Source: Christensenella sp. UBA3217 (GTDB lineage Bacteria > Bacillota > Clostridia > Christensenellales > CAG-1252). Taken from it: DNA of 64,000 nt. The notes under the pieces are model-generated. The model ran no database searches and was not told where the DNA came from. It saw only the letters and a program-made list of their open reading frames with translations. Location: assembly GCA_002363545.1 (NCBI GenBank), contig DEWF01000005.1, positions 44,294 through 108,293 on the forward strand, read 5' to 3'. Position 1 is the stretch's first letter. Each line of letters opens with the position of its first letter. This document shows positions 35,914 through 57,152 of the stretch, in pieces. The translations under genes and the position numbers were made by a program.

Positions 35914-35919
35914 TCCTAA

Positions 35920-35933
35920 TGGCGGAGAGATAG
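35920..35933. repeat. Left island junction: 14-bp direct repeat identical to the tRNA-Ser 3' end
   Basis: TGGCGGAGAGATAG is identical to 57131-57144. Confidence 0.8.
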
Positions 35934-36172
35934 TAACCAAAATTGATTTTTTTTTGCGGCTCGCGCTTTTCTGTTGAGAAAATTGCAACTTTTTACAATA
36001 ATTCTCAATACTCCTCGGGTGTCCTTTAAGCATGTCAATCATATTTGAATTACGAAATTTGTGTAAAGTTACACATTTTTCGGAATTTTCTAAATCTGTT
36101 TTTCTTAAAAGTTTTGCTGTCCGCTTTTTCGTACATCGAATATGTTATTTTCAAATAAAGGAGACGAAGTAG

Positions 36173-37444
36173 ATGAACGAGTTTGACAGAATCGCAGGCT
36201 ATGAATCAATCAAGAGCGAAATCGAAGAGATTTGTGCCTTGTTTAAAGCCGAAAAGACGTATCGGCAGAAAGGGATCAAAATCCCTAAGGGTATCCTCTT
36301 ATACGGTGCCCCGGGGATCGGGAAAACACTTTTCGCGGAGTGCTTTGCAAAGGAAAGCGGATACCCCTTTTTGCTTTGCAGAAAAGACGGCGATCAAAGT
36401 GATTTTATCGGGCGGATCGTCGAGTTCTTCGATAAGGCGGAGAAACAAGCTCCTGCGGTTTTGATCTTGGATGATCTTGATAAATATGCAACTGGGGATG
36501 ACAGAGAGAAGAATGCCGAAGAGTACGTTGTCGTGCAAACTTGCATCGACAAAAGCAGAGAGAAGGGCGTTTTCGTTTTCGCGACGGCGAACGATACGCA
36601 TTCCTTGCCAGATTCCTTGTTCCGTGCGGGACGCTTTGATCACGTTTTTGAGGTTCGCGCTCCCGAACGTGTGGACGTCGAAAAGATACTCGCCCATTAT
36701 CTTGACGGGAAGAAGGGAGCTGACGTAGACATTTTTGCTTTTTCGAAATTGCTTTGCGGAAAAAACTGTGCGGAGATCGAGCAGATTACAAACGACGCGG
36801 CGATCCGTGCTTTTCAGCGTGGGGGCGAGGAGATAAACAAAGAGGACATGATCCGCGCTTCCGTGCGCAGTATTTATCGATCTCCCAGGACGATTGTCGA
36901 TGACGTCAGAGAAGGGACTTCATACGACGAAAGAGTTGCTTATCATGAAGCCGGGCACGTGGTAGTCGCCGAGATACTTGAACCGAGCAGCGTAACGATG
37001 GTGAGCTTGGGAAATTACGAAGGATTGATCCGAGGGTTTACCGCTCGATATTATCAATCGGAGTATTGGAAAAACGCCGATCTAATAGAGAAGGATCTCA
37101 GCATTCTTCTTGCCGGAAAGTGTGCGATAGAACTTACTTACGGAACGGCGGATCCGCTTTGCGAATCCGATCTGCAAGCGGCGAGCGATGTCGCGCGGTC
37201 TTTTGTCTCGGTCTTTGCCGCAAAGGGTTTTCAGTCATACAATTCGGGATATGCGAGTTCAAGTATTCAAAGAATGATCGCGGAACGTGAAACGAACGGG
37301 GTGATGGAAGTCGCTTATGAAAGGGCAAAAAAGATCATCGCAGAGAACCGTGACTTTCTCGAAGCGATAGCAAAACAATTGATAGATAAAAAACTTCTTT
37401 TGGAAGAAGACGTCCAAAGGATAAAGATAGGTCAAGGAGGATAG
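36173..37444 (+). CDS. Soluble (TM-less) FtsH-like AAA+ ATPase fused to M41 zinc metalloprotease
   Basis: Walker A GAPGIGKT, Walker B VLILDDLDK, second region of homology ATANDTHSLPDSLFRAGRFD, HEXXH motif YHEAGHVV, LLAGKCAIELTYG. No hydrophobic N-terminal helices. Confidence 0.85.
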   Translation: MNEFDRIAGYESIKSEIEEICALFKAEKTYRQKGIKIPKGILLYGAPGIGKTLFAECFAKESGYPFLLCRKDGDQSDFIGRIVEFFDKAEKQAPAVLILDDLDKYATGDDREKNAEEYVVVQTCIDKSREKGVFVFATANDTHSLPDSLFRAGRFDHVFEVRAPERVDVEKILAHYLDGKKGADVDIFAFSKLLCGKNCAEIEQITNDAAIRAFQRGGEEINKEDMIRASVRSIYRSPRTIVDDVREGTSYDERVAYHEAGHVVVAEILEPSSVTMVSLGNYEGLIRGFTARYYQSEYWKNADLIEKDLSILLAGKCAIELTYGTADPLCESDLQAASDVARSFVSVFAAKGFQSYNSGYASSSIQRMIAERETNGVMEVAYERAKKIIAENRDFLEAIAKQLIDKKLLLEEDVQRIKIGQGG

Positions 37445-37445
37445 A

Positions 37446-37766
37446 ATGAAAAGAACTTGTATGAACGTAGTATTTACCGATCCGATAAAAGCGCTTAAAG
37501 AAACGTTGTCGCGGAGTGGTGCGAAGGACATTGATCTGCGACGTCTCTATGGGTATAACGTCGAAGTGCGATACAATGTCGCTATGCCCGATCCCAAAAG
37601 AGAGATTGCCGAAGTGTTCACCAAAATGGGCGCAAAGAATGTGCGAATCGGCGAATCGCATGATGGCGCTTGTTTTGAAATGGAAATACCCGAAATCGTG
37701 GACGAAAGAACGTTTAAGAGAAATGCGGAAGAAGTATTCCGTCGCGTAGGTTATCGGGTGCGATAA
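37446..37766 (+). CDS. Hypothetical 106-aa protein coupled to the AAA-protease gene
   Basis: AAGGAGG RBS lies inside the end of the upstream gene, with 1 nt between stop and start. No recognisable motif. Confidence 0.6.
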   Translation: MKRTCMNVVFTDPIKALKETLSRSGAKDIDLRRLYGYNVEVRYNVAMPDPKREIAEVFTKMGAKNVRIGESHDGACFEMEIPEIVDERTFKRNAEEVFRRVGYRVR

Positions 37767-37787
37767 AATATGCCCCGAGAAAGAGTC

Positions 37788-37816
37788 TTGAATGAGATCG
37801 TTAACGGTGCTATAAT
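37788..37816 (+). promoter_or_regulatory. Internal promoter for the WYL regulator / GIY-YIG unit
   Basis: TTGAAT (37788-37793), 17 nt, TATAAT (37811-37816), followed by GGAAAGGAG and a GTG at 37887. Confidence 0.5.
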
Positions 37817-37886
37817 GAAGACACGATCACCCTCTTTTTTCGCGTATCGAGCCAAGCGACTTGCGAGAAGGGGAAAGGAGCGCGCT

Positions 37887-38861
37887 GTGCCTTCGCCGAA
37901 CAATAAAAAACTATCGATTCTTTACGTTTTGGATATCCTGAAAACGTACAGTGACGAGGAGCATCTTTTGACGCACGCACAAATCGCGGAAAAGATATGT
38001 GCTCAATGGGGAATGGAATGCGAACGAAAGTCCATTGCCGCGAACGTCGACGCTTTAATCGATTTCGGCTACGATATCGTGAAGACGAGAAACGGATGCT
38101 ATCTTGCGGATCGGGAGTTTGAATCAAGCGAAATCAGCTTTCTTGCGGATGCCGTTTTTTCTTCTCCTAGCATCGACGGGAAACAAGCGAAACGCCTTGC
38201 CGAAAAGTTAACGGCATTTGAAAGTGTTTATAAAAGGAGAGATTATTCGTATCTGTATAAAGCCGATTCTTTGACCCGCACGAAAAACAAAGAAATCTTT
38301 CTTTCAATCGAGTTGATCGAAGAGGCGATCAAACAAGATAAGAAGGTTTCCTTTCGGCACGCAAACGAAGATTATAGGGGAACGCAAGGGAGAACAAGCG
38401 TCAGCCCATACTTCCTTATAAACAAACAGGGAAAATATTATCTCGTTTGTCTTTACGATGGCGAGAAGGAACTTTTCAATGTACGCCTTGATCGGATCAA
38501 GGATGTGAAAATCGCCGAAGAAAAGCGGATTCCCCTCCGCGTGATTAAAGGCTGCGAAAAGGGACTTGATATCGCGCGATATGCGAATGAAAACGTCTAT
38601 CTTCTGTCTTCGCGCAGTGTGAAAGCGAAACTTCGGCTTTTACAGCCCGAGTCACGACAATACGTTGAAGAGTGGTTCGGCAACGCGCGCTTTTTCGAGG
38701 AGAACGGGCACACCTATGCCGATCTCACGGCAAACGAACGCGCCCTCATCTATTGGTGCTTGCAGTACGGAGAAGAAGCAATCCTCGTATCCCCGCCGGA
38801 AACAAAAGCGGAGATCATTCGCTTGTTGGATCAAATAAAAAATGAATACAAAGGAGAATAA
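37887..38861 (+). CDS. HTH + WYL domain transcriptional regulator
   Basis: N-terminal wHTH KLSILYVLDILKTYSDEEHLLTHAQIAEKI. WYL core KYYLVCLYDGEKELFNVRLDRIKDVKI. The GTG at 37887 with a strong RBS is preferred; the listed ORF allows 37770 or 37815. Confidence 0.8.
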   Translation: MPSPNNKKLSILYVLDILKTYSDEEHLLTHAQIAEKICAQWGMECERKSIAANVDALIDFGYDIVKTRNGCYLADREFESSEISFLADAVFSSPSIDGKQAKRLAEKLTAFESVYKRRDYSYLYKADSLTRTKNKEIFLSIELIEEAIKQDKKVSFRHANEDYRGTQGRTSVSPYFLINKQGKYYLVCLYDGEKELFNVRLDRIKDVKIAEEKRIPLRVIKGCEKGLDIARYANENVYLLSSRSVKAKLRLLQPESRQYVEEWFGNARFFEENGHTYADLTANERALIYWCLQYGEEAILVSPPETKAEIIRLLDQIKNEYKGE

Positions 38862-38862
38862 T

Positions 38863-39888
38863 ATGGAAAAAGTTTTGAGTTTCGAAAAACTGTTTAAACT
38901 TGATGATTCTATGAAGAAGAAAGTTAAACTTGTTTTTCACACGCGAAATGATGATGAATATGCAGATGACGATCATGATGCGTGGGCTCTATTGCAGTCG
39001 GATATTGTGAAGGAGCAACAAAATGTTGCTATTTCGGATAATCAAAAACAAGATCGTTGGGCGGATATGAATTGGTCCTGTATAAGTAAAGACCTCCCGA
39101 TTCAACATCTAATCGTGTTTGCACAGTACCTTGATTATGGAAATAACTATTATGTTTTCGGCGGGTACTATGTTTATGATCGCACAAAGGAAGAGAAAAA
39201 ACTTGAGCGAAATCGGGACTACGATGAATATCGTGGGCGTTTAATAGTCAAGCGTAATGGAAATTTTGGACAAGGGTATTCGTTCTACTACGATACTGTA
39301 AAAAATAAAAAAACAGAAAACGGAGAAGATAGTTTACAAGTATATGCTTTACTCCCTTTTGATTCGGGGGTGGGTGCTTTCGTTGGATATGATAAGGTAT
39401 ATTTAACGCACAAGCAATTGGCGAAAATATTTGAATCGAAGGATGGCGCCGCAGACTGGAAAAAGGCTCTTTCAAAAGTGAAAGCGGTTTACTGCATAAC
39501 TGACACATCAAATGGAGAATTGTATATTGGCTCTGCTAACAGTAGAAATGAAGCACATTCAGAAAAAACGATTTCAGCGAATTCAAGTGCTTGCAAAGGG
39601 CTATGGGGAAGATGGCAGTATTATGCTGATCAAAACGATTTAACGGGTGGGAACAAATACTTTAATGACATTGTAAGTGGTAAAATCTCCGAAATAACAG
39701 TAAAGAAATCAAACGGAGAATTTGAAATAATTGAAATAAAGGATGGGAAAGAGCACATAAAGAACTATTTCACATATGCGATTTTGGAAATATTTGATAT
39801 TCGCACCGCGGATAGTGTTGTTCTTGCAAGAGAAGAGTATTGGAAAAAAGTATTTCAATCAAGAAAGTTTGGAATGAATCGGAACTGA
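38863..39888 (+). CDS. GIY-YIG nuclease-domain protein with ~200-aa unknown N-terminal domain
   Basis: AVYCITDTSNGELYIGSA (GIY..YIG), GLWGRWQYY (Arg), FTYAILEIF (Glu), EEYWKKVF. AAGGAG RBS; start lies 1 nt after the WYL stop. The sequence becomes more AT-rich here by eye. Confidence 0.75.
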   Translation: MEKVLSFEKLFKLDDSMKKKVKLVFHTRNDDEYADDDHDAWALLQSDIVKEQQNVAISDNQKQDRWADMNWSCISKDLPIQHLIVFAQYLDYGNNYYVFGGYYVYDRTKEEKKLERNRDYDEYRGRLIVKRNGNFGQGYSFYYDTVKNKKTENGEDSLQVYALLPFDSGVGAFVGYDKVYLTHKQLAKIFESKDGAADWKKALSKVKAVYCITDTSNGELYIGSANSRNEAHSEKTISANSSACKGLWGRWQYYADQNDLTGGNKYFNDIVSGKISEITVKKSNGEFEIIEIKDGKEHIKNYFTYAILEIFDIRTADSVVLAREEYWKKVFQSRKFGMNRN

Positions 39889-39919
39889 TGTGATTCCCCT
39901 ATAATCAATCGCAGTAAAT

Positions 39920-39957
39920 AAAACGAGCCTCGACTTAGCGTCGGGGTTCGTTTTATT
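39920..39957. repeat. Second copy of the host-flank terminator hairpin
   Basis: AAAACGAGCCTCGACTT (16/17 identical to 35860-35876) and GGGGTTCGTTTTATT (15/15 identical to 35899-35913). Confidence 0.7.
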
Positions 39958-39959
39958 GT

Positions 39960-40432
39960 AAAACGAAAACCACGCGATAGTCGCGTGGTTCAAAAGAGGT
40001 TAACCGATGAACAGAACGACCTCCTATTGTATAATGGTTTTGTGACCTGCCAGTTACAAAAGAAATACAATAGGAGGTTATTTATGAAAAGAGAGATATC
40101 TGCAGATAGTTTAGCACACACGAAGTGGGATTGCAAATACCAGGGGGAACTTGAAATTCGCATACCGAAACAGGGAATTTTGGTGCAAGGGGTATTACGT
40201 TGATACAGTAGGGAAGAACACGAAAGCGATAAAGGAATACATAGCACACCAACTGGAACAAGATAAGCAAAGTGACCAGTTAAGTATGTTTGATCCAAGG
40301 GACCCGTTGACGGGTAGCAAGTAACAGATGCATGACTGGCAGGTCAATACAAAAACGCATTTATGCGTAGCCAGTAAAGGATAGGGCTATGCCCGAAAAT
40401 GTAAAGCCCCCCGATTTTCGGGGGGATCTTTA
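39960..40432 (+). mobile_element. IS200/IS605-family remnant (terminal hairpins retained, transposase internally deleted)
   Basis: Left-end hairpins ACCACGCGA-tag-TCGCGTGGT and CCTCCTATTGTAT...ATACAATAGGAGG, the latter sequestering the RBS. Right-end hairpin CCCCCCGA-ttt-TCGGGGGG. Confidence 0.65.
40084..40323 (+). pseudogene. tnpA: IS200-type Y1 transposase (tnpA) pseudogene, internal deletion plus frameshift
   Basis: N-terminal MKREISADSLAHTKWDCKY is joined out of frame to the C-terminal GNLKFAYRNREFWCKGYYVDTVGKNTKAIKEYIAHQLEQD. The catalytic HUH/Tyr core is missing. Confidence 0.75.
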
Positions 40433-40435
40433 CTC

Positions 40436-40446
40436 CCTAATGGCGG
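40436..40446. repeat. Partial third copy of the junction (flank + first 6 nt of att core)
   Basis: CCTAATGGCGG is identical to 35915-35925. Confidence 0.5.
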
Positions 40447-40515
40447 CGTAACTGAATGTCAGTTTGAACTTTTTATTTTTAACCAAAGAATCGCTTTGTG
40501 CATAACGATTCAGCA

Positions 40516-41727
40516 TTAATTCAGTTTTAGATTCGTAAGTAATTCAACAAATCCCTTGTAATTATGGTGGAGATTTGTTGTTCCTATACTCTCCAATCGG
40601 TTATACTCCCTGATGGATGGGATTAACGCTGAAGGTGTTTTTATTCCGATATACCTTAACGCTTCGTTCATAATTAGATGGTTTAAGTAAATCGTTTCTT
40701 CGGCAGATATTTTTTGTATCTCGTATTCAAATAAATCGTCTTTATCTTTATATAACAGGATATCTGCTTCGGTTTTTATTTTGTCCATATTAACGTAAGT
40801 GTTTTTGGGTAAAGAGAAATGTTTCGTTAGAAACGGAGAGCAAATGGTGTCTTTATATTGATCTCGAATGGTTTTATTTGTGAAGTAATATTTCCATACC
40901 GGAGAAACAGACAAAATAGCAATATTTGACGAGATCGGGAACAGAATGTAATTATCAAAGTAACTTTTATCATTCTCTATTTCTCGTTTTGCTATTTCAT
41001 CAAAATTGTCTTTGCCAAAAAGAATCTTGCCAATTTCCTTTGCTTGGCGTATGTAACTTTCCTGTTCGCTTTTAGGAATTTTGACGGGAATTCGTTCGGT
41101 TGCATATCCTAGATCGTTAACGCAAAACTCGTTATCAGTATGTAAAAACATAAGAAAAGATGTATTGATTTCAATTGCGTGTTTTTTAATACCAACCATA
41201 TCCGAGGTAAGTAACGAGTCAAACGTGTTGTCGAGGATATAAAGCATTTCTCGTTTCCAAAAGTCTTCGCGACTTTCTCCCTCGTTGATATTAAATTGAC
41301 TTAATTCGAGCGCATTTTGCGGGACGTTCATGTAAGATCTTCGATTGTTTGGCGTTCTATATAGTTGTAAAAGAATATACTTTTTAATCGTTTCTAATTC
41401 ATAGCGTTTAAACGCATAATTGTTTTCCGAAACACATTTTGCCACTATTTTAGACATGGGCTGTTCAATCTTGATTGAAAATTTATGTTCAAGTTCCTTT
41501 ATGTCTTCTGATGAGGGAACGTCATATAGTTTGTTTTCTTGAAATGCCGACGACGTATCGAGATAAGCCGCATTAAAATTAATAAGATCCAAAACGCATA
41601 TTTTATAACACTTATTAGACGTTGGAATTGCAAAACGATTTAGTAATGCCTTTTGGATATAATGGTTTTTATCATAAGATGACATTGTAAGTTGCTCCTG
41701 CTTCTTTTGCAATAAGTATATATTCAT
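40516..41727 (-). CDS. DUF4238-like protein
   Basis: N-terminal KNHYIQKALLNRF resembles the H-[HY]-[VI]-P-Q-x-[YL]-L-x-x-F signature. Also ELEHKFSIKIEQ and LLQLYRTPNNRR blocks. An ATG at 41685 (MSSYDK) is an alternative start. Confidence 0.5.
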   Translation of the reverse strand: MNIYLLQKKQEQLTMSSYDKNHYIQKALLNRFAIPTSNKCYKICVLDLINFNAAYLDTSSAFQENKLYDVPSSEDIKELEHKFSIKIEQPMSKIVAKCVSENNYAFKRYELETIKKYILLQLYRTPNNRRSYMNVPQNALELSQFNINEGESREDFWKREMLYILDNTFDSLLTSDMVGIKKHAIEINTSFLMFLHTDNEFCVNDLGYATERIPVKIPKSEQESYIRQAKEIGKILFGKDNFDEIAKREIENDKSYFDNYILFPISSNIAILSVSPVWKYYFTNKTIRDQYKDTICSPFLTKHFSLPKNTYVNMDKIKTEADILLYKDKDDLFEYEIQKISAEETIYLNHLIMNEALRYIGIKTPSALIPSIREYNRLESIGTTNLHHNYKGFVELLTNLKLN

Positions 41728-41796
41728 TTTGACGCTATGTAAATAGTCGACGTTGCGAATACTTTTCGATTTTCTTATTTTGTTTGGGTTTAGACC

Positions 41797-41825
41797 TTGC
41801 GTTTTAAAGGAGATAATGTTATAAT
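41797..41825 (+). promoter_or_regulatory. Promoter of the ATPase/RM/Abi/helicase array
   Basis: TTGCGT, 17 nt, TATAAT. Small palindrome GGTAA-tg-TTACC at 41836-41847. AGGAG RBS before 41871. Confidence 0.5.
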
Positions 41826-41870
41826 GTAGAAAACTGGTAATGTTACCGAAAATTTTAATTAGGAGTCGTT

Positions 41871-43160
41871 ATGACAATAAAGCGAGATTTATATCTTGAC
41901 AAATTAAAGAATCATATGCATAACGGAATGATCAAGATCATTACCGGAATGCGCAGGTGCGGGAAAAGCGTTCTTTTATTCAATTTGTTTTATAACTATC
42001 TGATTGAGTCGGGCGTGAAAGAAGATCATATTATCGCCGTCAATCTCGAAGACGTCGGCAATCATGAGTTTAGAGACCCGCAAAAACTATACGATCATAT
42101 TTGTTCGCAAATCAAGACGAACGAGCAGTATTACGTTTTTCTTGATGAAGTTCAATACGCTATTTCCAAAGGCGATGCGCAAAGCGACGAACCGTTACCG
42201 CTTTATGGCGTTTTGAACGGCTTATTACACAAGATGAACGTGGACGTATACGTGACGGGAAGTAATTCTCGATTCCTTTCATCCGATATAAGAACGGAGT
42301 TTCGAGGTAGGGGAGATGAAATACACGTTCAACCGCTCTCTTTTGCGGAGTTTATGTCGGTTTACGATGGAGACAAATACGACGGCTTGCGCGACTATAT
42401 GGCTTACGGCGGCTTACCGCAGATTGCTTTTATGAAAACGCACGAGCAGAAGGCGGCGTATTTGACAAACCTGTTTGACGAGACTTATATAAAAGATGTC
42501 GTGGACAGGTACGGTATCCGGCGGAATGCGGCGGAGTTTGGCGAATTGGTGGATATCCTTTCGTCTGCCATCGGTTCCCTTAGCAATCCTACGAAACTCA
42601 GCAACACGTTCAAAAGCGTCAAAAACAAAACGGTCGCACAGCTTACGATAGCAAGGTATATTTCGTATCTCGAAGACTCTTTTTTGATCGACGAAGCCGT
42701 TCAATACGACGTAAAAGGAAAGAAGTATATTAACAGTCCGAAAAAATACTACTTTACGGATCTGGGACTTCGTAACGCAAGACTCAATTTCCGTCAACTT
42801 GAAGAAACCCATTCTATGGAAAACGTTATTTATAACGAGTTGAAATTGCGCGGGTATTCCGTAGATGTCGGCGTGATCGAAAAACGCGAAAAGAGCGAAG
42901 ACGGCAAAAGCCTGCGCAAGCGTTACGAAATTGATTTTGTTGCCAATCAAGGCTATAAGCGCTACTATATCCAGTCTGCACTCGCTATGCCAACCTTGGA
43001 AAAGGAGCAGCAAGAACAGCGCTCTTTGATGGGCGTCAACGACTCTTTCAAAAAGATCATCATTGTAGGCGGTTCGACTATGACGCATTATAATGAAAGC
43101 GGTATTTTGATCATGGGAATCCATGATTTCTTGTTGAAGAAAGACAGTTTGGATTTTTAA
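41871..43160 (+). CDS. AAA_14 + DUF4143-type ATPase (COG1373-like)
   Basis: Walker A GMRRCGKS, Walker B YVFLDEVQY, VYVTGSNSRFL, GRGDEIHVQPLSFAEF. Confidence 0.8.
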   Translation: MTIKRDLYLDKLKNHMHNGMIKIITGMRRCGKSVLLFNLFYNYLIESGVKEDHIIAVNLEDVGNHEFRDPQKLYDHICSQIKTNEQYYVFLDEVQYAISKGDAQSDEPLPLYGVLNGLLHKMNVDVYVTGSNSRFLSSDIRTEFRGRGDEIHVQPLSFAEFMSVYDGDKYDGLRDYMAYGGLPQIAFMKTHEQKAAYLTNLFDETYIKDVVDRYGIRRNAAEFGELVDILSSAIGSLSNPTKLSNTFKSVKNKTVAQLTIARYISYLEDSFLIDEAVQYDVKGKKYINSPKKYYFTDLGLRNARLNFRQLEETHSMENVIYNELKLRGYSVDVGVIEKREKSEDGKSLRKRYEIDFVANQGYKRYYIQSALAMPTLEKEQQEQRSLMGVNDSFKKIIIVGGSTMTHYNESGILIMGIHDFLLKKDSLDF

Positions 43161-43191
43161 TATTTGTATTTGTCGGAGCGAGGTTATTTCA

Positions 43192-45735: not shown

Positions 45736-45744
45736 GGAAAGTGT

Positions 45745-48219: not shown

Positions 48220-48221
48220 GT

Positions 48222-49226: not shown

Positions 49227-49238
49227 AGAGGCATACTT

Positions 49239-50372
49239 ATGAAAAGTGATGGACATACCACTATAAATGCGAAAGCGGAAGAGCCTCTGGATTTTTCGGT
49301 TGCACTCGATAAAATTCTTGAGTACTTACCTCAAGAGTATTCGGATAAAACAGAAAAGCAATATATTGATGCTCTTATCCTTGCGACTCGTACTAGTTAT
49401 GAAAATGGGCTATATCAATTTGCATATATCCAGTACCATATGCTTTTTATGACTGCCGTGTATTATGCTCTTTTGCAAATTTCTTTCGTGCATAAAAAAG
49501 AACTTGAAAAAGGGCTATATTATTTATTAAAAGATAGGTATTCGGAGTTTTGGAAGGAAAGTAACACAAAAAAAGGGGAACTCTATTTCGGCAGTTTTGC
49601 CATAATAAACGAAAGCGACGTTTTTATGTTGCTTCGAGTGGTAGGATTAGAGAACGATTTTTTGGGTGAATTGAAGGATTTGGTTAAGCAACGAAATAAT
49701 TATGCTCACGCAAATGGGCAACTCTTGCTGACATCCGATGATCTATTTCTTGATGCCATAAGTAACTATAATGAAAAAGCAGAAAAAGTAATAAATTTTT
49801 TAAAAACAGATTTAATTGCTTTTTACAAGAAAAGTATAGGTGAAAAAGACTTCTACGATCCTGAAATACGTGCTTGTTCAGATGCGGACGAACAAATGGA
49901 ACAAGAGTTTATTAAAAAGTATTCTCTTTCTCAAACAGAATTAAACTGGTTGCGAAAAATTCAATTGTCTGAGTTTGATGATATGAATGGTGCAGAAGAG
50001 ATAAAGACACTTCATTGTGCATTGATTCATTATTATATCGAATTGACACGAGACGATTATATACCGATTGCAGATACTTATATTCAAAATAAATACCATG
50101 AAAATGCGGTGGGTTTTATAGAAAATGAGATGGGTATTAGCGCCTATGAATGCGGCAAATATGGGGCTGAATTCCCGTTGTATGAATGCCCTGAATGTGG
50201 AGAAGAGCAACTCGTTTTTGACCAAGAAAACGGTAAATATCATTGTTTTGCATGTGATGAAGATTTTACTACTGAAGATTTAGCGCGTTGTGACCGTTGT
50301 GGGTGTTTGATGAAACGAGATGACGATTGGCAGCTTTGTGGAAATTGCACAGAAGAGATAAAGAGAGATTAA
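49239..50372 (+). CDS. HEPN-like protein with C-terminal double zinc ribbon
   Basis: LVKQRNNYAHANG fits the HEPN R-x4-H (RN..AH) RNase motif. C-terminus has CPECGEE..HCFACDED and CDRCGC..LCGNC. Confidence 0.55.
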   Translation: MKSDGHTTINAKAEEPLDFSVALDKILEYLPQEYSDKTEKQYIDALILATRTSYENGLYQFAYIQYHMLFMTAVYYALLQISFVHKKELEKGLYYLLKDRYSEFWKESNTKKGELYFGSFAIINESDVFMLLRVVGLENDFLGELKDLVKQRNNYAHANGQLLLTSDDLFLDAISNYNEKAEKVINFLKTDLIAFYKKSIGEKDFYDPEIRACSDADEQMEQEFIKKYSLSQTELNWLRKIQLSEFDDMNGAEEIKTLHCALIHYYIELTRDDYIPIADTYIQNKYHENAVGFIENEMGISAYECGKYGAEFPLYECPECGEEQLVFDQENGKYHCFACDEDFTTEDLARCDRCGCLMKRDDDWQLCGNCTEEIKRD

Positions 50373-50386
50373 GAGTGGATATACAA

Positions 50387-53122
50387 ATGAACGAGTTTGA
50401 TCAAAACATTATTACCGTAAGCGACAATATCTGCAAAAATATTGCATCCATCCCTGATGGAGAGCGTGGTTTTGTATCGCAAAACATATTAAGCAATTTG
50501 CGAAATCTTGTTGAAGCTGTAGACCAGCGCATTTTTAGTGATATAGAACCTATTGAATTAAATTGCTATAACGATATCGAAAAAGCGATAAAATATGTTG
50601 CATCTCGTGGGAATTTGAGATTTTTAAGCAAGTTTCATGATTTTTTGCAGGCTTCAGTTTCGCATTATACACCGGATGAGGATAGTTCTATACGGTTGAT
50701 GTTGAAGTATTATGAATGGTTGCTCAAGATTCGTGATTACTGCAAGACGGTTTTCTCTTTAGATATTTTGGGCAACTTAGAGGACTACCCATTACAACAA
50801 GACGAATCGTTAAAAGAGTATTATGACAAAATTGCTTGTAAGTTGGAAACCGCAAGATACTATAATAGCCAGCCTAATAACAGATTTTATATTGAAAAAA
50901 ACAAGCCGTTTTTTGTTGACGGGAAAACATATTATCAATTAACGGTAACACCTGCCGATGATTTTTCGAGCAAATTTGATAGGATAATTGTTTTTTCTGA
51001 TCGTGATATCCCTTCATATTACGCCATCAAACTTGATTTTATAGACAGTTCTATCGACATTATCGATAGAGTAATGCCTATAAAAATCGTTAATAATTAT
51101 ACCGTTGCAATTCGCCCTGTTGAATTTGAAGATATAGCGTCGATTTTAGGCGTAAATAAAGTCAATGTCGGCACAAAAGAAAACAGGTTTATGATGGATT
51201 ATTTGACCAAGACTGGTGCGAATCTTACTGAGATTATCAATTATGAACAAAAATATTATGATCAACTTAAAAATGAACTAATTAGCAGATGCGAGTCAAA
51301 TAATTTTTTCATAATGCTTGATAAATGCAGAGCTTTATCGAAAAATAAAAGTTCAGGGCACAATATAATTCGTTATTTGCTATTGCGCTTGCGACACGGT
51401 GTTATGAAGGCACAAATTCAATCAACTGAAAACAATTGGTTATCTAATTTGTGCTTATTAAATGAGAGTATTCCTTTTGATAAAATGCCTTTTGACGCAT
51501 CTCTTCATAATCACAATCCATCTCTATTTGATATTTTTTCAAGCATAAATATTAAAGGGCACGAAGAGGAACTGCTTTCAAGGAAAGTGCGCACCAATAC
51601 CGAACAAAAAGTTCAATTATTTACACCAATAGAAGATGTAAAAAAATATGGTGATGTAGAGGAATTGGCAAATAGGTTTAACTCACGTCTTATCCCCAAG
51701 CACAAACCCGTTAGAAGTTTGATAATCGAACACGGACAAATCCATATAAAAGGTTATGTGGATGACACTATTTGGATAATTAATAATCTTATTAGCAGAC
51801 AAGAGAGCGGATTAGCCGGGTACAAAAATTCGATGATATCTTGGGTAAATACAAATCCTGCGGTAGATTCGGAAGAAAAAAAGAAGATTTTACCTAATAT
51901 TTTTGATAGTTCCAATTTAGCGTTGATTTATGGCGCAGCAGGAACCGGCAAAACAACACTAATTAAACATTTGGCAGATTACTTTTCAAATGAAAGTAAA
52001 CTGTTCTTGGCGAATACAAATCCAGCGAAGGAACATCTTCGCAGAGAAATAAAAACAAAAAATAGCGAATTCAGTACCATAGCAGGAAGCAAACAGTATT
52101 TGAAATACTCTTATGATGTAGTTTTTATTGACGAATGTAGTACTGTGGACAATTTATCAATGAAAAAACTGTTACAGCAATTATCATGTAAATTATTAGT
52201 GCTTGTAGGAGATGTGTTTCAGATACAATCCATATCATTTGGTAATTGGTTTGGTCTTGCTCGTTATTTCTTGCCTAAAAGCATAATTTTTGAGCTGACT
52301 ACACCTTACAGGGGGCAACAAAATAATAATCTTATTGGTTTATGGAATCGCGTACGAGAACTTGATCCGCAAATTGCAGAATATATCTATAGAAACAAAT
52401 ATTCTGCAACTTTAGATGATGGGACTATTTTTGCAAACGATTTAACTGATAGAATTATTTTATGCTTGAATTACGACGGCTTATATGGAATTAATAATAT
52501 AAATCGATTTTTACAAAACGATAATCCTAATCCTCCAATCACATGGGACTCATGGATATACAAAGTCAATGATCCGGTTTTATTTAATGAACATAATCGC
52601 TTTTATCCCACTCTTTACAATAATTTAAAAGGTTGGATTCGTGATATCAAAAAGGATGATTATTCTATAACTTTTACTGTGGAAATAGATATGCCGATCA
52701 ATGGATTCGGAGCGTCTGAAGCAGGTTTTGAGTTGTTGGAGTGTGATGTGTCTGGGCATTCAATTATTAGGTTTACCGTGGGCAAATATGTTGATGACGA
52801 TAGTAGAGAAAGAAAACAAGAACAAGTGGTTCCTTTTCAAGTTGCTTATGCAGTATCAATACATAAAGCACAAGGACTTGAATACGATTCCGTGAAAATC
52901 GTTGTAACAAATGAGATAGAAGAGTTAATCTCTCACAATATTTTTTATACGGCAATTACTCGCGCAAAGAGAAAACTGAAAATATATTGGCAACCTGAAA
53001 CGCAACAGAAAATATTGTCTACCATAGAACCAATTTCCAACAAAAAAGATGCCTATATTATTGAAGCGAAATATGGGTTGAAGATATTGAATATGGTAAA
53101 ACAAGTAAAAAGGACGATTTAA
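50387..53122 (+). CDS. RecD/Dda-like SF1 helicase with ~530-aa uncharacterised N-terminal region
   Basis: Walker A YGAAGTGKTT, Walker B VVFIDECS, LVLVGDVFQ, AVSIHKAQGLEYDSV, FYTAITRAKRKLKIY. The ATG at 50387 follows the upstream stop by 14 nt. Confidence 0.8.
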   Translation: MNEFDQNIITVSDNICKNIASIPDGERGFVSQNILSNLRNLVEAVDQRIFSDIEPIELNCYNDIEKAIKYVASRGNLRFLSKFHDFLQASVSHYTPDEDSSIRLMLKYYEWLLKIRDYCKTVFSLDILGNLEDYPLQQDESLKEYYDKIACKLETARYYNSQPNNRFYIEKNKPFFVDGKTYYQLTVTPADDFSSKFDRIIVFSDRDIPSYYAIKLDFIDSSIDIIDRVMPIKIVNNYTVAIRPVEFEDIASILGVNKVNVGTKENRFMMDYLTKTGANLTEIINYEQKYYDQLKNELISRCESNNFFIMLDKCRALSKNKSSGHNIIRYLLLRLRHGVMKAQIQSTENNWLSNLCLLNESIPFDKMPFDASLHNHNPSLFDIFSSINIKGHEEELLSRKVRTNTEQKVQLFTPIEDVKKYGDVEELANRFNSRLIPKHKPVRSLIIEHGQIHIKGYVDDTIWIINNLISRQESGLAGYKNSMISWVNTNPAVDSEEKKKILPNIFDSSNLALIYGAAGTGKTTLIKHLADYFSNESKLFLANTNPAKEHLRREIKTKNSEFSTIAGSKQYLKYSYDVVFIDECSTVDNLSMKKLLQQLSCKLLVLVGDVFQIQSISFGNWFGLARYFLPKSIIFELTTPYRGQQNNNLIGLWNRVRELDPQIAEYIYRNKYSATLDDGTIFANDLTDRIILCLNYDGLYGINNINRFLQNDNPNPPITWDSWIYKVNDPVLFNEHNRFYPTLYNNLKGWIRDIKKDDYSITFTVEIDMPINGFGASEAGFELLECDVSGHSIIRFTVGKYVDDDSRERKQEQVVPFQVAYAVSIHKAQGLEYDSVKIVVTNEIEELISHNIFYTAITRAKRKLKIYWQPETQQKILSTIEPISNKKDAYIIEAKYGLKILNMVKQVKRTI

Positions 53123-54168
53123 TGACAGCGCAAATGAATAAAACACAAAAATATTATATTGCATATATGGATATCTTGGGATATAAGGAGTATTTGAAAA
53201 ATAATCCTGACAAAGCTCAAGAGTATTTGAATACAATTCTTGATGCTGTTGAAAGAGCAAAAATAAGTGTGTCAAATTTTGAGAGTAAAACTATGCCCAT
53301 GTATCAAATGGATGGCGGACTTCGGTTAAAGATTTTTTCGGACAATATTTTGCTTTGTATGCCGGTTGGTAATGGTAAAGATGAAATTCGCCGTGCCATT
53401 GTTTTCTTGATTGCAGTGGCTTCTATTCAAAGAGGAATGGTATTGCAACATGGCTTGATTACACGTGGCGGTATTATTTTTGGTGAACTTTTTATAAATG
53501 AAGATATAGTTTTTGGGCAAGGACTAATCGACGCGGTTTCTTTGGAGGCTAAAGCAGAATATCCGTGTATAATAGTATCTGATGAGTTGCCTAAAAAGTT
53601 ACATAGCCTGTTGAGTGATGTAACAGAACAATACAACAAAATAAGAACCCTTATCCAAAATCAAGAACAACACGTCGATTTTAGTTCTGAAGAAAAGAAG
53701 TATTTGGATGATAATTTGGTAAATGTTGCCAAACAGGTTTATTATTATCGCTCTTTGCAAGAATTGATGTTACATTTTGATAAAGAACCAATTTTTCTTA
53801 ATTATTTATTTGACTTATCGTTTACCAATCTTTTTGGAATTGTGTTTGAAAACTATGTTGCTCAAATTGCAAAAAATGAACCCAAAAAGTTTAAAGATTT
53901 GATCGGGACAAACGAAGATTATGCCTCTATATTATTAGCACATAAAGACATTGTAATAAACAAAGCGGTGACGTATTGCCATTATTGTGATATTGATAAG
54001 TCGAATGCTTTGTTAATAGCGGCAAGGGAGAAAGTAATTCGCAAATACATTTGGATGCTTAGGTTCCATATACATATGTGTGAGCGACTAAATTTTAAGC
54101 AAGGCATGTTTGCGTTTCGATTTGGTTGCGATCTAGATGTGTTGCGTCAAATTGTTGAAATTATATAG
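53122..54168 (+). CDS. Nucleotide-cyclase/GGDEF-like palm-domain protein with unknown helical C-domain
   Basis: Ordered motifs YIAYMDILGY, LKIFSDNILL, TRGGIIFGE and FGQGLIDAVSLEAKA resemble class III cyclase metal-Asp and R-x-G..G..N.A.R.E blocks. The start overlaps the helicase stop (TAATG). Confidence 0.5.
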   Translation: MTAQMNKTQKYYIAYMDILGYKEYLKNNPDKAQEYLNTILDAVERAKISVSNFESKTMPMYQMDGGLRLKIFSDNILLCMPVGNGKDEIRRAIVFLIAVASIQRGMVLQHGLITRGGIIFGELFINEDIVFGQGLIDAVSLEAKAEYPCIIVSDELPKKLHSLLSDVTEQYNKIRTLIQNQEQHVDFSSEEKKYLDDNLVNVAKQVYYYRSLQELMLHFDKEPIFLNYLFDLSFTNLFGIVFENYVAQIAKNEPKKFKDLIGTNEDYASILLAHKDIVINKAVTYCHYCDIDKSNALLIAAREKVIRKYIWMLRFHIHMCERLNFKQGMFAFRFGCDLDVLRQIVEII

Positions 54169-54174
54169 TATTAA

Positions 54175-54191
54175 AATCGGGTTTCCCGATT
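54175..54191 (+). terminator. Weak hairpin terminator ending the array
   Basis: AATCGGG-ttt-CCCGATT, followed only by a short T-poor tail. Confidence 0.35.
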
Positions 54192-54340
54192 GTTCGGCGA
54201 GCCGAAGGCGCCGCCATACGAAAAAGCGGATTTTGGCTATTTCCTTATCCTGCTATAGAAAAAAGCCGGATAGCCAAGGAAATAGCTAAAAAATTTTTCA
54301 AAAAAGTGGTAAGGTGTTTGCTACAACGAACACCTTAACC

Positions 54341-54369
54341 TTTACAAAGGCATTTGAAAGTGATATAAT
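54341..54369 (+). promoter_or_regulatory. Promoter of a non-coding transcript
   Basis: TTTACA (54341-54346), 17 nt, TATAAT (54364-54369). No ORF follows. Confidence 0.5.
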
Positions 54370-54373
54370 ATAG

Positions 54374-54601
54374 CTACAAACTGAATACGGGTGACAGGTA
54401 AAATACCATTGTTTGCCGCGAACGTTCGTTAAGCGATTATACTTGGCAGAAGCCGTATTGACTTAAACCGCATAAAAACCCAACAGCGGGCGGAGAGAAC
54501 AGTACGAAACCGCGAACCACGAGACTTCGGGCGAACAGATAGACCTTATTTTTGCGTTGCAGAAACGCGCGTAAGGTTTTGTCTGTTCGCCCTTTGTTTT
54601 T
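54374..54601 (+). ncRNA. Candidate ~230-nt structured RNA of unknown function
   Basis: Bounded by the promoter above and a long terminator hairpin. Internal pairings include AATACGG/CCGTATT and the palindrome CGAACGTTCG. No coding potential in any + frame. Confidence 0.4.
54529..54601 (+). terminator. Long-stem intrinsic terminator
   Basis: GGGCGAACAGA..CCTTA..GCG / CGC..TAAGG..TCTGTTCGCCC, followed by TTTGTTTTT. Confidence 0.7.
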
Positions 54602-54785
54602 AACGGGCATTCGGTTTGAATACAACCACAAGGAGGAATGTGTATGAATGCAAGAGATCGACCACACATCTGACAACCACGAGCGGAAGAAAGTCATTGA
54701 AAGTATTGGGAATCCGTTCCAAAATGGAAGCAGGTAAAGGATTTTCCCAAAATCAATGATTTTCGTTAATCCGACTCGTGGACAA

Positions 54786-54808
54786 GTGGGAAACCCACCT
54801 TTCTTTTT
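54786..54808 (+). terminator. Short hairpin + T-run
   Basis: GTGGG-aaa-CCCAC followed by CTTTCTTTTT. Confidence 0.35.
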
Positions 54809-54844
54809 CGGCAAGTAATTGCCACAAGATGACAGGCCCATATC

Positions 54845-54939
54845 TCTCCGCGCGGAGAAATATTCGTCGTATATATACGAGAAAGAGCTTGACATGCCCT
54901 CGTTAATGGAGTAGAATATAAACAGTCGTATCAATACGA
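54845..54939 (+). promoter_or_regulatory. Promoter of the recombinase module flanked by paired operators
   Basis: TTGACA (54889-54894), 17 nt, TAGAAT (54912-54917). 14-bp palindromes TCGTATATATACGA (54867-54880) and TCGTATCAATACGA (54926-54939), plus TCTCCGCGCGGAGA (54845-54858). Confidence 0.6.
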
Positions 54940-54969
54940 TTAGGATATTTACCTAAGGAGATGAAAAAG

Positions 54970-55266
54970 ATGACGAAACCGAGAGCGGAAAAAGATAAGA
55001 GATATGAGGATAGACACAAGGAAGAACGGAAAGCCAAGTGTATGGTTTGGGGAACGAGCGTTGATCGCAAAGAAGCGGAAAAGATAAACGCATTTCTCGA
55101 AGAGTATGGTTACACGAAAGTCCAATTGATCCGGGCGGGCTATAAAGCATTGATGGACGAAGCCGCTGAACATGATTTAGGATTAGCGAAGATAATGGAT
55201 AAGTACGATGACTTTTTCAGCGGAGAACTTGAAAAGTTTGAGAAACAGAAAAAGGAAGACAAATAA
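54970..55266 (+). CDS. Small basic/acidic protein of the recombinase module (possible regulator or directionality factor)
   Basis: 98 aa. AAGGAG lies 9 nt upstream of the ATG at 54970. Lys/Arg-rich N-terminus and a helical C-terminus. No confident family. Confidence 0.5.
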   Translation: MTKPRAEKDKRYEDRHKEERKAKCMVWGTSVDRKEAEKINAFLEEYGYTKVQLIRAGYKALMDEAAEHDLGLAKIMDKYDDFFSGELEKFEKQKKEDK

Positions 55267-55610
55267 CCTCTTCGGGAGCGAAGAACAGACACTTGACCTA
55301 CGTAGGGAAAAGGATTACGCGAAAGGAGCATTGGCGTAATGGACTCCCTTTAATTTCTTGTGAGAGTGAGGGCAAAAAAATACACCGGATACCCTCACCG
55401 TCCAAAAGGAATGAATAATAAAACACCAAGTAAAGAACGTTGTCACCGTGGATTTAACAAGCGGTGCAAGCAGTAAAACCCCTTGCGACCTGTCGCAAGA
55501 ACAAATCAACAAAAGCGCAAACATATTGGCAAACGTATTGATAGACTTTGTTAAGAACGGCGGAAGCCTTAAAGATCTTACGCCACAACACGTATTCGGG
55601 AGGAAAGGCA

Positions 55611-57152
55611 ATGAATAGAGCGGTCATCTATGCAAGATTCAGTTCTCACAGTCAAACGGAACAGTCCATCGAAGGACAACTTCGCGAGTGCTATGAATAT
55701 GCCAAACGGCAAAACATCGTGATCGTGGGCGAATATATAGACAGAGCCTTGACGGGAACGATGGACAAGCGTCCCAACTTCTTAAAGATGATCGAAGACA
55801 GCAAGAAAAAGACCTTCGACTTCGTTCTCGTCTATCAGTTGGATCGCTTCGCTCGTAACCGATATGACAGCGCAAACTACAAAGCAAAACTCAAAAAGAA
55901 CGGCGTGCGTGTTCTTTCCGCCAAGGAGAATATCAGCAACGACGCAAGCGGTATCCTGATTGAGGGCGTACTGGAAAGTATGGCGGAGTACTACTCCGCC
56001 GAGCTTTCCCAAAAGGTAAAACGCGGTATTAGAGAAAGCTTGACTAAAGGATATTTCATCGGTGGGTACGGACTGTTCGGCTATGACGTCATGGACAAAA
56101 GATGGGTCGTAAACTCTTTTGAAGCGGACGTCGTTCGGGACGTGTTCAATCGTTACAAGAACGGTGAAAAGTTGAACGACATAATCAATAGACTCAATCG
56201 TGATGGTATTAAAACGAAAGCGGGTTCGGCTTTCAATATGAACAGTGTTGCCCGCATGATCCGCAACGAGAAGTATATCGGTCTTGTCCGTTCTAACGGC
56301 AATGTCTATACCAACGTTGTTCCCGCCATCGTGGACGAAAGTCTATTCCGAGAGTGTAACGAAATGATGGACGAACACAAGCACAAACAGCGTGAGTGTA
56401 AAGCGGAGAAGCCGTATATATTGAGCGGTAAACTGTTCTGCGGCTACTGTGGCAGCATGATGACGGCGGAAGCCGGCACAAGCAAAACGGGGAAAGTTCA
56501 CCACTATTACAAGTGCTTCAATCGCAAGAAGAATCCGTCCGCCTGTGGCAAGAAAAGTTACAAGCAAAAGGACTTAGAAGATCTCGTTTTCGACACGACG
56601 GTGGACTATATCTTAAAGCCGAAGGTCATCGACCAAATCGCGCAGATCGTGGTGGAACGCTTCAATGCGGAGATAACCAAATCTGCGAACATTGCCAATC
56701 TCGAAAACGAGCTAAAATCTAAAGAAAAAGCGATAAACGGCTTGCTCACCGCAATGGAACAAGGCGTCGTCACGAAAACGACCAAAGACAGAATGCTCGC
56801 ATTGGAAGCGCAAAAGGAAGAGTTGGAAAGCAAGATCGCATTGGAAAAGGCAAGGCAAATCGAGCCGTTATCTTACGAAACGGTACGCGCTTTCCTGACC
56901 TATTTCGCACGGAAAAAGTACGAAAGCGACGAAGTCAAAAACGAATTCTTTAATTCGTTCATCAATCGTGTTATTCTGTACGACGATAGAGTGCTTATCT
57001 TCTACAACACCGATCCGAACAGTCCGACGACCATCGACACAGCCGAAAACAAAACCATTTGCGATCAATTCAACCAAAACAACGCAAAAGAAAACTCGCT
57101 TGAACCTTCGGGGTTCAAACGAGTTTCACTTGGCGGAGAGATAGGGATTTGA
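55611..57152 (+). CDS. Large serine recombinase (integrase)
   Basis: Resolvase domain AVIYARFSSHSQ (catalytic Ser), VLVYQLDRFARN. Recombinase domain. Zinc ribbon CGYCGSMM...HHYYKC. Coiled-coil C-terminus. GGGAGGAAAGG RBS before 55611. Confidence 0.9.
   Translation: MNRAVIYARFSSHSQTEQSIEGQLRECYEYAKRQNIVIVGEYIDRALTGTMDKRPNFLKMIEDSKKKTFDFVLVYQLDRFARNRYDSANYKAKLKKNGVRVLSAKENISNDASGILIEGVLESMAEYYSAELSQKVKRGIRESLTKGYFIGGYGLFGYDVMDKRWVVNSFEADVVRDVFNRYKNGEKLNDIINRLNRDGIKTKAGSAFNMNSVARMIRNEKYIGLVRSNGNVYTNVVPAIVDESLFRECNEMMDEHKHKQRECKAEKPYILSGKLFCGYCGSMMTAEAGTSKTGKVHHYYKCFNRKKNPSACGKKSYKQKDLEDLVFDTTVDYILKPKVIDQIAQIVVERFNAEITKSANIANLENELKSKEKAINGLLTAMEQGVVTKTTKDRMLALEAQKEELESKIALEKARQIEPLSYETVRAFLTYFARKKYESDEVKNEFFNSFINRVILYDDRVLIFYNTDPNSPTTIDTAENKTICDQFNQNNAKENSLEPSGFKRVSLGGEIGI
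57131..57144. repeat. Right island junction: 14-bp direct repeat (last 14 nt of tRNA-Ser)
   Basis: TGGCGGAGAGATAG is identical to 35920-35933. Confidence 0.8.

Follow-up and report, generated by a model that had tools for sequence, protein, structure and literature searches.

The window analyzed here is a 64,000-nucleotide stretch of contig DEWF01000005.1 from Christensenella sp. UBA3217. Its single tRNA gene, tRNA-Ser(CGA), was placed by ARAGORN on the minus strand at 57131-57220. Between this gene and luxS (35293-35817) lie 21 kb of DNA that carry a cluster of defense genes and, at the tRNA-proximal edge, a gene for a large serine recombinase (LSR) that runs into the tRNA gene itself; the structure and probable origin of this region are the subject of this report. 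The region is bounded by two copies of a 14-mer, TGGCGGAGAGATAG, at 35920-35933 and 57131-57144. An exact search found these two copies only, and 100 shuffled sequences gave no match even with one mismatch tolerated. By the ARAGORN coordinates, the right copy is the final 14 nt of the tRNA gene, CCA included, and the left copy (site A, minus strand) is a displaced tRNA 3' end; a one-mismatch variant of site A, TGGCGGAGcGATAG, is present in the metagenome contig L003. To the right of the tRNA gene lies a PNPOx-family gene on the minus strand (57364-57846). A sliding profile gave GC contents of 0.33-0.47 across 36-57 kb versus 0.50-0.53 in the flanks, with values of 0.50 for the left flank, 0.43 for 35934-39957, 0.39 for 40447-57130, and 0.51 for the right flank. 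Between luxS and site A is a terminator arm (term0, 35861-35919) that ends in ttcctaa and contains a compound stem, AAAACGAACC...GGTTCGTTTT, at 35861-35912, only the inner plus-strand part of which was flagged by the terminator scanner. An earlier note on this DNA had called attention to the repeat, its coincidence with the tRNA end, the hairpin to its left, and the AT-richer interior, all of which we confirm. It had overlooked a second tRNA-end fragment at 40436-40446 (cctaaTGGCGG), a tnpA remnant at 39958-40435, and the position of the LSR stop codon within the tRNA gene. An intact tRNA gene together with displaced 3' fragments is a feature of Islander-type islands, and both are found here, the fragments being 14 nt long at 35920 and 6 nt long, or 11 nt with the trailer, at 40436-40446.

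The LSR gene (55611-57152, plus strand) encodes 513 amino acids beginning with MNRAV, and its stop codon (57150-57152) falls 19-21 nt inside the tRNA-Ser gene. The protein is a bona fide large serine recombinase by sequence. It contains Resolvase (PF00239, E=2.4e-29), Recombinase (PF07508, E=8e-19), and Zn_ribbon_recom (PF13408, E=5e-14) domains, matches the A118 integrase C-terminal domain structures 4kis and 6dnw, and matches the phrog_95 integrase family with E=1e-122. Ser11 in its YARFSS motif aligns with the serine of YCRVST in PDB 3g13, and this column is invariant in 16 homologs. It is the only intact recombinase in the region, the earlier note having listed it as the only recombinase; Pfam and PHROG scans of ORFs of at least 98 amino acids between 35.9 and 57.2 kb detected no tyrosine recombinase (PF00589).

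A protein search found relatives of the LSR in more than 120 clusters, with identities of 59-95%. In the 16-homolog alignment, the C-terminus keeps a conserved tail, NSLEPxxFKRVSLGGxxGI, which often extends as GIRTH or GIRTP and is the opposite-strand reading of a tRNA T-arm (GGGATTCGAACC); a GGxxGI(RT..) tail was present in 70 of the 120 closest cluster representatives. A locus scan restricted to one genome per species returned 80 loci, all from metagenome-assembled genomes (MAGs) of gut Clostridia and many labeled Christensenella, Christensenellaceae, or Catabacter, in which tRNAs were called with ARAGORN. Where the LSR was at least 55% identical and downstream sequence was available, nearly every locus had a minus-strand tRNA with its 3' end overlapping the last ~18 nt of the LSR match. 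These were tRNA-Ser genes (cga, gga, gct, or tga) and, in one subclade, tRNA-Met. Among LSRs of 40-50% identity, the ORF stopped within a tRNA gene (Ser, Glu, Lys, Ala, or Val) at 12 loci. A tRNA on the opposite strand or 5' of the LSR, scored as a control, occurred at one locus only. The association thus belongs to the lineage as a whole and did not arise by chance in this window: these sequences link the LSR family systematically to tRNA 3' ends. At two loci the picture was less regular. In L031 (~11470-11580), the LSR abuts a tRNA-Met-like sequence that was not called by ARAGORN and appears to be truncated, and in L041 (~11440-11560), neither a tRNA nor a recognizable P' arm follows the LSR arm and TGGCGG.

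The LSR gene belongs to an integration module (54174-57136, plus strand) common to other elements. This module also includes a 98-amino-acid ORF (54970-55266) that is conserved with the LSR; its only match was a weak one to a repressor-like PHROG, and it is a candidate regulator or directionality factor. Other assemblies break at ~55000 in window coordinates, within this shared module.

Directly left of the tRNA end, the window and all close relatives carry a long hairpin. In the window this element-borne hairpin (57091-57127, minus strand, 15-16 bp) lies within the LSR coding region and reads aaactcgcttgaacc-ttcg-gggttcaaacgagttt, followed by cact and then TGGCGG. Viewed along the tRNA strand, the hairpin begins 3 nt past the CCA, is followed by T-rich CTTTTGCGTT, and was recovered by the terminator scan as a stem of 16 pairs. 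Across 26 homologous junctions, both sides changed in 9 of 15 pairs, and pairing was retained in 83% of cells compared with 20-48% when partner columns were slid as a control. The hairpin also contains the LSR-side outer motif GTTCAAA (57113-57119). On the tRNA strand, this 5' arm, TTTGAAC, is nearly invariant, whereas its pairing partner is variable, which suggests that the arm is also a putative protein-recognition motif. The element would thus substitute its own terminator for the native tRNA terminator, and the same sequence would serve as the P arm of attP.

The earlier note had taken the entire segment from 35920 to 57144 as the LSR element and had proposed that the recombinase restores the tRNA end through a 14-bp target duplication. 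Neither proposal was supported. When the 10 kb upstream of related LSRs were searched for direct repeats of the tRNA end that were 11 nt or longer, almost none were found. The true cores are 6 bp, and a motif search worked instead. Upstream of the LSR, each of L016, L030, L038, L042, and L043 has a single copy of the signature TGGCGG-N16-(T/A)TTGAAC followed by TTTT(T)AT, giving element sizes of 10.1, 7.8, 3.2, 9.7, and 10.3 kb, respectively. In the window, this left-end signature is found at 40441-40476 (TGGCGG CGTAACTGAATGTCAG TTTGAAC TTTTTAT) and not at 35920. It comprises a proposed attL core, TGGCGG at 40441-40446 (site D), and a P' element-side arm at 40447-40476 on the plus strand, in which a 16-nt spacer precedes TTTGAAC (40463-40469) and TTTTTAT. 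The attR core is TGGCGG at 57131-57136, with a proposed GG crossover dinucleotide at 57135-57136. In all six elements, attL and attR have TGGCGG alone in common, and GG is shared by every attL/attR pair. The LSRs of the window and L016 are 93% identical and have identical LSR-side (P) arms, and their junctions diverge straight after TGGCGGAG because the tRNAs differ.

The symmetry of the reconstructed sites points to the same junction. The dyad of attP has a single best center, between G5 and G6 of TGGCGG, scoring 11/22 for the window element and 12/22 for L043, with scores of 8 or less elsewhere; an inner inverted repeat, GGGTG...CACCC, is symmetric about G5/G6 in L030, L038, and L043. When paired with the LSR-side arm, the arm at 40447 gave a dyad score of 16/27, higher than at any other of the window's 84 TGGCGG sites and in the top 0.1% of all positions, whereas the arm at site A (35926) scored 9/27, which is background. 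The T-loop motif TT(T/C)GAAC lies 11 nt after the core on the tRNA side (TTTGAAC at 57148-57154, in the acceptor and T-arm DNA that forms the proposed chromosomal B' half-site), and the corresponding motifs of the element arms lie 11 nt before and 16 nt after the core. Measured from the dyad center, the outer motif is at ~12 nt on the tRNA side and at 16-17 nt in the element arms, and thus 4-5 bp closer on the tRNA side. In the structural model of serine integrases, attB and attP half-sites differ by a 5-bp offset, a geometry that the window sites match. As read from these sequences, the att sites appear to be dyads around a central GG that is the same in attP and attB, as for other LSRs. A different attB dyad, GGGTTC-N17-TGG/CGG-N17-GAACCC centered at 3/4, was considered and dropped, as the attP center is uniquely G5/G6 and a GC crossover would be palindromic. 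Most likely, the LSR element is the ~16.7-kb segment 40447-57136 and has an ordinary short serine-integrase core rather than a 14-bp duplication.

The DNA between site A and site D (35934-40440, 4.5 kb) probably forms a separate unit, called E1 here, with a four-gene cassette and no recombinase. It starts with a "class A" element-side arm (35934-35955, plus strand) reading TAACCAAA, with ATTGATT at 35942-35948, 16 nt after TGGCGG, and then a T run. Arms of this type (TGGCGGAGNGNTAG-TAAY..AAATYGA) recur in L003, L097, and L191: the E1 left arm (TAACCAAAATTGATT...) is present in the strain variant L003, stands behind a plain hairpin in L191, and is fused to an LSR-side arm in L097, and the LSR homolog P0097 reads through it in its protein tail. 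An ORF downstream of the L097 LSR was examined as a possible second LSR and rejected, being a lipoprotein-like gene. L191, an IMG/VR contig, has two T-arm-like segments (GGGTTCGAATCCCACT) in opposite orientation just upstream of its class-A junction (9960-10075), which may be debris from other tRNA-targeted insertions. At its right end, E1 has a second terminator arm (term1, 39922-39957), homologous to term0, which forms the outer junction's arm on the chromosome side. Homologous copies of a terminator arm plus tRNA end therefore stand on both sides of E1, and the left one retains 14 nt of tRNA; the 10-mer CTAATGGCGG occurs exactly only at 35916 and 40437. The E1 right arm (GTTCGTTTTATTCCCTAA-TGGCGG) is closely similar to the arm found on the recombinase side in another LSR clade associated with tRNA-Ser (L051 and the upstream LSR of L042). 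The luxS-side terminator (35861-35919) carries 21 nt (tggggtcaccccagttagcct) that the homologous terminator after the cassette (39922-39957) does not have, and the luxS-proximal arm could itself be a remnant of a still older insertion.

A 478-bp IS200/IS605-like remnant (39958-40435, plus strand) with terminal hairpins and an internally deleted tnpA splits the right arm of E1. Read by eye, its peptide MKREISADSLAHTKWDCKYQ... and then a C-terminal ...DPRDPLTGSK resemble TnpA. The remnant is inserted between ttatt and ccctaa, the arm resuming as ccctaa at 40435-40440 and then entering ccctaaTGGCGG, the inner junction; L181 carries the same arm uninterrupted as ggggttcgttttattccctaaTGGCGG. The remnant is a multicopy genomic repeat, since four other assemblies break inside its left hairpin.

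L181 comes from a related species whose luxS is 84% identical. It contains luxS, an MMPL gene, a homologous cassette (49-72% amino-acid identity), and the terminator arm ggggttcgttttattccctaa, beyond which are a 21-nt tRNA fragment, 181 bp, and an intact tRNA-Ser(gga), with no LSR element; by BLAST, window positions 35891-35933 match L181 9752-9794. This species thus has the cassette, together with a different small insert, on the chromosome side of its tRNA-Ser site, an arrangement that indicates that E1 is probably separate from the LSR element. At this site (L181 9772-10064), the 181-bp stretch closes with its own hairpin terminator, and the core is longer than those of the LSR elements; the stretch represents either a miniature insert or what is left of an island deleted almost entirely.

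Gene content was assigned with Pfam, PADLOC, and PHROGs. The E1 cassette, entirely on the plus strand, encodes an IetA-like AAA+/peptidase M41 protein (36173-37444), a 106-amino-acid ORF (37446-37766), a WYL/WCX protein (37770-38861), and a UzuA-like protein (38842-39888). The cargo of the LSR element spans 40516-54168 as a whole. It consists of a DUF4238 protein on the minus strand (40516-41727), PDC-S01 with AAA_14/DUF4143 domains (41871-43160), HsdR (43192-45735), an HsdM-HsdS fusion (45745-48219), AbiTii (48207-49226), a weakly matched HEPN/Zn-ribbon protein (49239-50372), the PDC-S53 SF1 helicase (50327-53122), and its 348-amino-acid partner (53122-54168). The fusion, which adjoins HsdR, is a single 824-amino-acid protein with an N6_Mtase domain and two Methylase_S stretches. 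The claim that the region between the repeats holds mostly defense-type genes was upheld, with type I restriction-modification, AbiTii, UzuA-like, IetA-like AAA+, PDC-S01, and PDC-S53 (E=0) genes clustered as in a defense island, and so was the claim that phage structural and conjugation genes are missing: Pfam, PADLOC, and PHROGs detected none between the repeats. Outside the island, a very large ORF begins ~2 kb right of the tRNA (window ~59020 onward; L004 13410-21542); in gene calls of identical contigs it encodes 2746 amino acids, and no Pfam hit to it was recorded.

The best explanation for the 21 kb from luxS to tRNA-Ser(CGA), and one that we judge probable, is that two integrative units stand in tandem, both inserted at the very 3' end of the tRNA gene. 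E2, the inner of the two (~40447-57136, 16.7 kb), would be an autonomous LSR element. Its attP is predicted to be GTTCAAA-N11-TGGCGG-N16-TTTGAAC, with the left half in the last LSR codons, and attB would be the tRNA end, TGGCGG-N11-TT(T/C)GAAC, made up of acceptor and T-arm DNA plus the 3' trailer. Strand exchange would take place at the GG of TGGCGG, corresponding to tRNA positions 71-72, 4 nt from the tRNA end, and GCCA alone would therefore have to come from the element to rebuild the tRNA. The native terminator, displaced by the insertion, would be replaced by a strong hairpin terminator that E2 carries. Integration would also alter the C-terminus of the recombinase, which has 513 residues in the integrated state and is predicted to have 532 in an E2 circle and 525 in a 21-kb circle. 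The outer unit, E1, may be an element of broadly the same type that is older or non-autonomous and that was subsequently interrupted by the IS200/IS605-type remnant. This model predicts an E2-circle junction of GAGTTTCACT-TGGCGG-CGTAACTG (attP-D k-mer GAGTTTCACTTGGCGGCGTAACTGAATG) and an E2 empty site of cassette-ccctaa-TGGCGGAGAGATAGGG (attB-D k-mer CTCCCTAATGGCGGAGAGATAGGGATT).

Multiple observations on related elements bear on this model. First, the 3-kb LSR module (54174-57156) is 91% identical in nucleotide sequence to that of L016, an uncultured Catabacter MAG in which it stands at a different tRNA-Ser(cga), with different flanks and with a cargo of D12 and N4/N6 methyltransferases plus a second LSR. 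The occurrence of this module at another tRNA-Ser with other cargo argues for its recent mobility, and elements of the family span 3.2 to 16.7 kb. Second, L042 contains a second LSR (154-1670, 45% identical to the window LSR) that ends directly left of the attL of its LSR element at tRNA-Ser(gct). Two serine-recombinase elements clearly stand in tandem at a single tRNA-Ser here, and such arrays thus occur in the family. Third, the LSR isoforms P0030, P0034, P0035, P0037, and P0072 cross the core into a P' arm instead of a tRNA, as expected for attP or for tandem arrays. Finally, some relatives have two different LSRs with 33-36% mutual identity. In L016, these LSRs (1412-2992 and 9938-11593) lie at opposite ends of the integrated element, each reading outward over a junction, and in L198 (10001-13046), two convergent LSR genes have 3' ends that overlap by 113 bp at an attP-like junction, which suggests that part of the family uses a two-recombinase att system.

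Several points weigh against the two-unit model. A 1-nt offset separates the two element arms, and in the left arm on the chromosome side the outer motif is spaced as in attP; neither feature is a neat fit to the textbook model. The window and L016 have LSRs that are 93% identical but P' arms with unrelated inner sequences; a second LSR could bind the P' arm in L016, whereas the window has none. At the inner attL, the IS remnant interrupts the arm on the chromosome side 6 nt away from the core, which may disable excision of E2 through site D. The joining of a class-A arm to LSR-side arms in L097 and P0097 means that the LSR might use site A too, and an identity of 14/14 is surprisingly clean for an old scar. 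Searches for mobile or empty forms were also negative. The earlier note had suggested looking for empty sites in relatives and metagenomes; exact-protein look-ups with luxS, the LSR, PNPOx, the UzuA-like protein, and the DUF4238 protein returned the same arrangement only, every contig with identical flanking proteins carrying the island and revealing neither an empty site nor an insertion polymorphism. Some contigs had ends that resembled junctions, but their breaks lie in the IS remnant or the shared LSR module. A search for the circular junction, also suggested earlier, fared no better: IMG/VR gave no match to the attP pattern, a generic attP pattern, or site-D arm patterns, and the JGI metagenomes, from which the species is apparently absent, gave no match to attP or to luxS-terminator plus tRNA-end patterns.

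These negative results, together with the IS remnant in the inner attL arm, favor a reading in which the whole region is a fixed, immobile relic whose recombinase is kept but moves nothing and whose repeats are historical scars. We consider this possible but doubtful. The window retains an intact LSR ORF in which all three domains and the active-site motif are present. A module whose LSR is 93% identical occurs in another species, where both the tRNA-Ser and the cargo are different, and this argues that the module moved recently. The contigs from the look-ups come largely from a few sample series and represent little diversity. E2 may still be active.

A second alternative, the model of the earlier note, is that a single 21.2-kb element (35934-57130) was moved whole by the LSR with the 14-mer at 35920 as attL, in which case TGGCGG at 40441 would be an internal scar from aberrant excision of an ancestor together with neighboring DNA. 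A perfect 14-bp repeat does delimit the low-GC DNA, the T-loop-like ATTGATT lies to the right of 35933 at the same N16 spacing, L097 and P0097 show class-A arms fused to LSR-side arms, the IS remnant breaks the chromosome-side arm at 40436 but leaves that at 35861-35919 intact, and both parts occur together in all sampled strains. We nevertheless regard this alternative as unlikely. The LSR-side arm and site A have no dyad center and score at background, five relatives use an arm of the site-D type, and both GC content and module identity split the region in two. In addition, the cassette occupies the same luxS-to-tRNA-Ser neighborhood of a related species that has neither the LSR element nor its left junction, which would be a coincidence if the cassette were cargo of that element. 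A single element would yield a circle with GAGTTTCACT-TGGCGGAGAGATAG-TAACC (attP-A k-mer GAGTTTCACTTGGCGGAGAGATAGTAACC) and an outer empty site of TTTCCTAA-TGGCGGAGAGATAG-GGATTT (attB-A k-mer TTATTTCCTAATGGCGGAGAGATAGGGATT).

The weakest alternative, that another enzyme such as a tyrosine integrase since lost or acting in trans made the outer repeat by crossover at or beyond nt 14 from the tRNA 3' end, leaving only the inner unit as a serine-recombinase element, would account for an identity block of 14 bp ending at the tRNA 3' end, as is typical of tyrosine-integrase islands (PMC4383910), for its extension 8 nt right of the proposed serine crossover, which a GG crossover does not need, and for the missing recombinase in E1, but it is improbable given that no tyrosine recombinase or remnant was found in the island of the window, that the right arm of E1 resembles the recombinase-side arm of the L051/L042 LSR clade, and that the class-A arm retains a T-loop-like motif at LSR spacing.

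Under the two-unit model, E2 is most likely a serine-integrase element that is conventional in its short core and unconventional in its target, the final six bases of a tRNA gene. The earlier note had called the association of a serine recombinase with a tRNA-end duplication an unusual combination. The first half of this description stands, with the tRNA as a target used systematically in the lineage, and the second, a long duplication of the tyrosine type, does not. Target preference, an attP inside the LSR ORF, and an element-borne tRNA terminator appear to be common to a large lineage in gut Clostridia. A wider proposal, to which we would give an even chance when all of its parts are taken jointly, is that this serine-integrase lineage comprises several sister clades that use the near-universal tRNA T-loop and acceptor end as the chromosomal half-site. 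Strand exchange would occur 4-6 nt from the tRNA 3' end; attP would lie in the recombinase's own last codons, so that integration rewrites the C-terminus of the enzyme; and each element would carry a replacement tRNA terminator. Elements and recombinase-less units with compatible arms would stack into tandem defense-island arrays, and a few changes in inner-arm contacts would switch the tRNA target (Ser, Met, Glu, Ala, Lys, or Val).

Transfer RNA genes are classic landing pads for genomic islands, a habit credited to tyrosine integrases. If the proposal is correct, island finders that rely on tRNA genes overlook a class of elements in gut Firmicutes, and a serine-integrase lineage that uses another chemistry and another position in the tRNA explains part of the build-up of defense islands in these bacteria. 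Serine integrases are also preferred tools for genome engineering, and a family that uses a conserved tRNA T-arm half-site could provide ready-made landing sites in bacteria without genetic tools. The att-site model can be tested directly, as it specifies sites of ~50 bp with a GG crossover and outer TTYGAAC motifs spaced at N11 (tRNA side) and N16 (element side).

Phage-type LSRs, such as those of A118/LI, TP901-1, phiC31, and Bxb1, share with the window LSR the order of Resolvase, Recombinase, zinc-ribbon, and C-terminal coiled-coil regions, and with E2 att sites of ~50 bp, an imperfect dyad around a 2-bp crossover, and a short core, 6 bp in the case of E2. In these systems, the chromosomal half-site motif is nearer the center than those of the element half-sites, as it is by 4-5 bp in E2. 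The sequences are distant, the best PDB matches of the window LSR having E values of ~1e-11 to 1e-13 over single domains. Whereas phage-type LSRs target protein-coding or intergenic sites, E2 appears to target the last 6 nt of a tRNA gene, and unlike them, it has the left half of attP inside the recombinase ORF and a putative replacement terminator for the target gene.

The closest named relative found was the integrase of Roseburia phage Shimadzu, at ~43% identity. The integration site of this phage lies within the 3' end of int, the integrases of the prophage and the free phage differ in their last ~20 residues, and a second copy inserted in a tRNA was reported as a secondary event and not as a rule (bioRxiv 10.1101/575076). 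The window LSR similarly has two isoforms on paper, of 513 residues when integrated and 532 when excised. Shimadzu is a complete siphophage, whereas the window element has no phage genes, and we saw no obvious tRNA-like core near the int 3' end in the deposited Shimadzu genome. According to reviews of streptococcal elements, serine recombinases disrupt genes that are dispensable, and a 2026 survey of proviruses found that tyrosine integrases prefer RNA genes and use longer cores. A literature search, whose scope was the sources other than the TIGER paper and the large LSR catalogues, returned no description of a tRNA-targeting clade of serine integrases.

Like the region described here, islands of the Islander type made by tyrosine recombinases lie at tRNA 3' ends, have the tRNA gene rebuilt from element DNA with a displaced fragment at the far end, carry accessory or defense cargo, and can accumulate in tandem. 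They differ in that the island of the window has no tyrosine recombinase, that the E2 crossover would be 4-6 nt from the tRNA end and not in the anticodon or T loop, and that the E2 core is 6 bp. SCCmec offers a further parallel: the CcrAB serine recombinases insert this element into the conserved housekeeping gene rlmH/orfX at its 3' end and leave the gene functional, and SCCmec forms tandem or composite arrays that include recombinase-less units mobilized in trans. SCCmec targets a protein-coding gene and the window element an RNA gene, the window element has a single LSR, and there is no sequence relation beyond the family level; the presence of two different LSRs per element in some relatives of the window LSR (L016 and L198) resembles the SCCmec arrangement.

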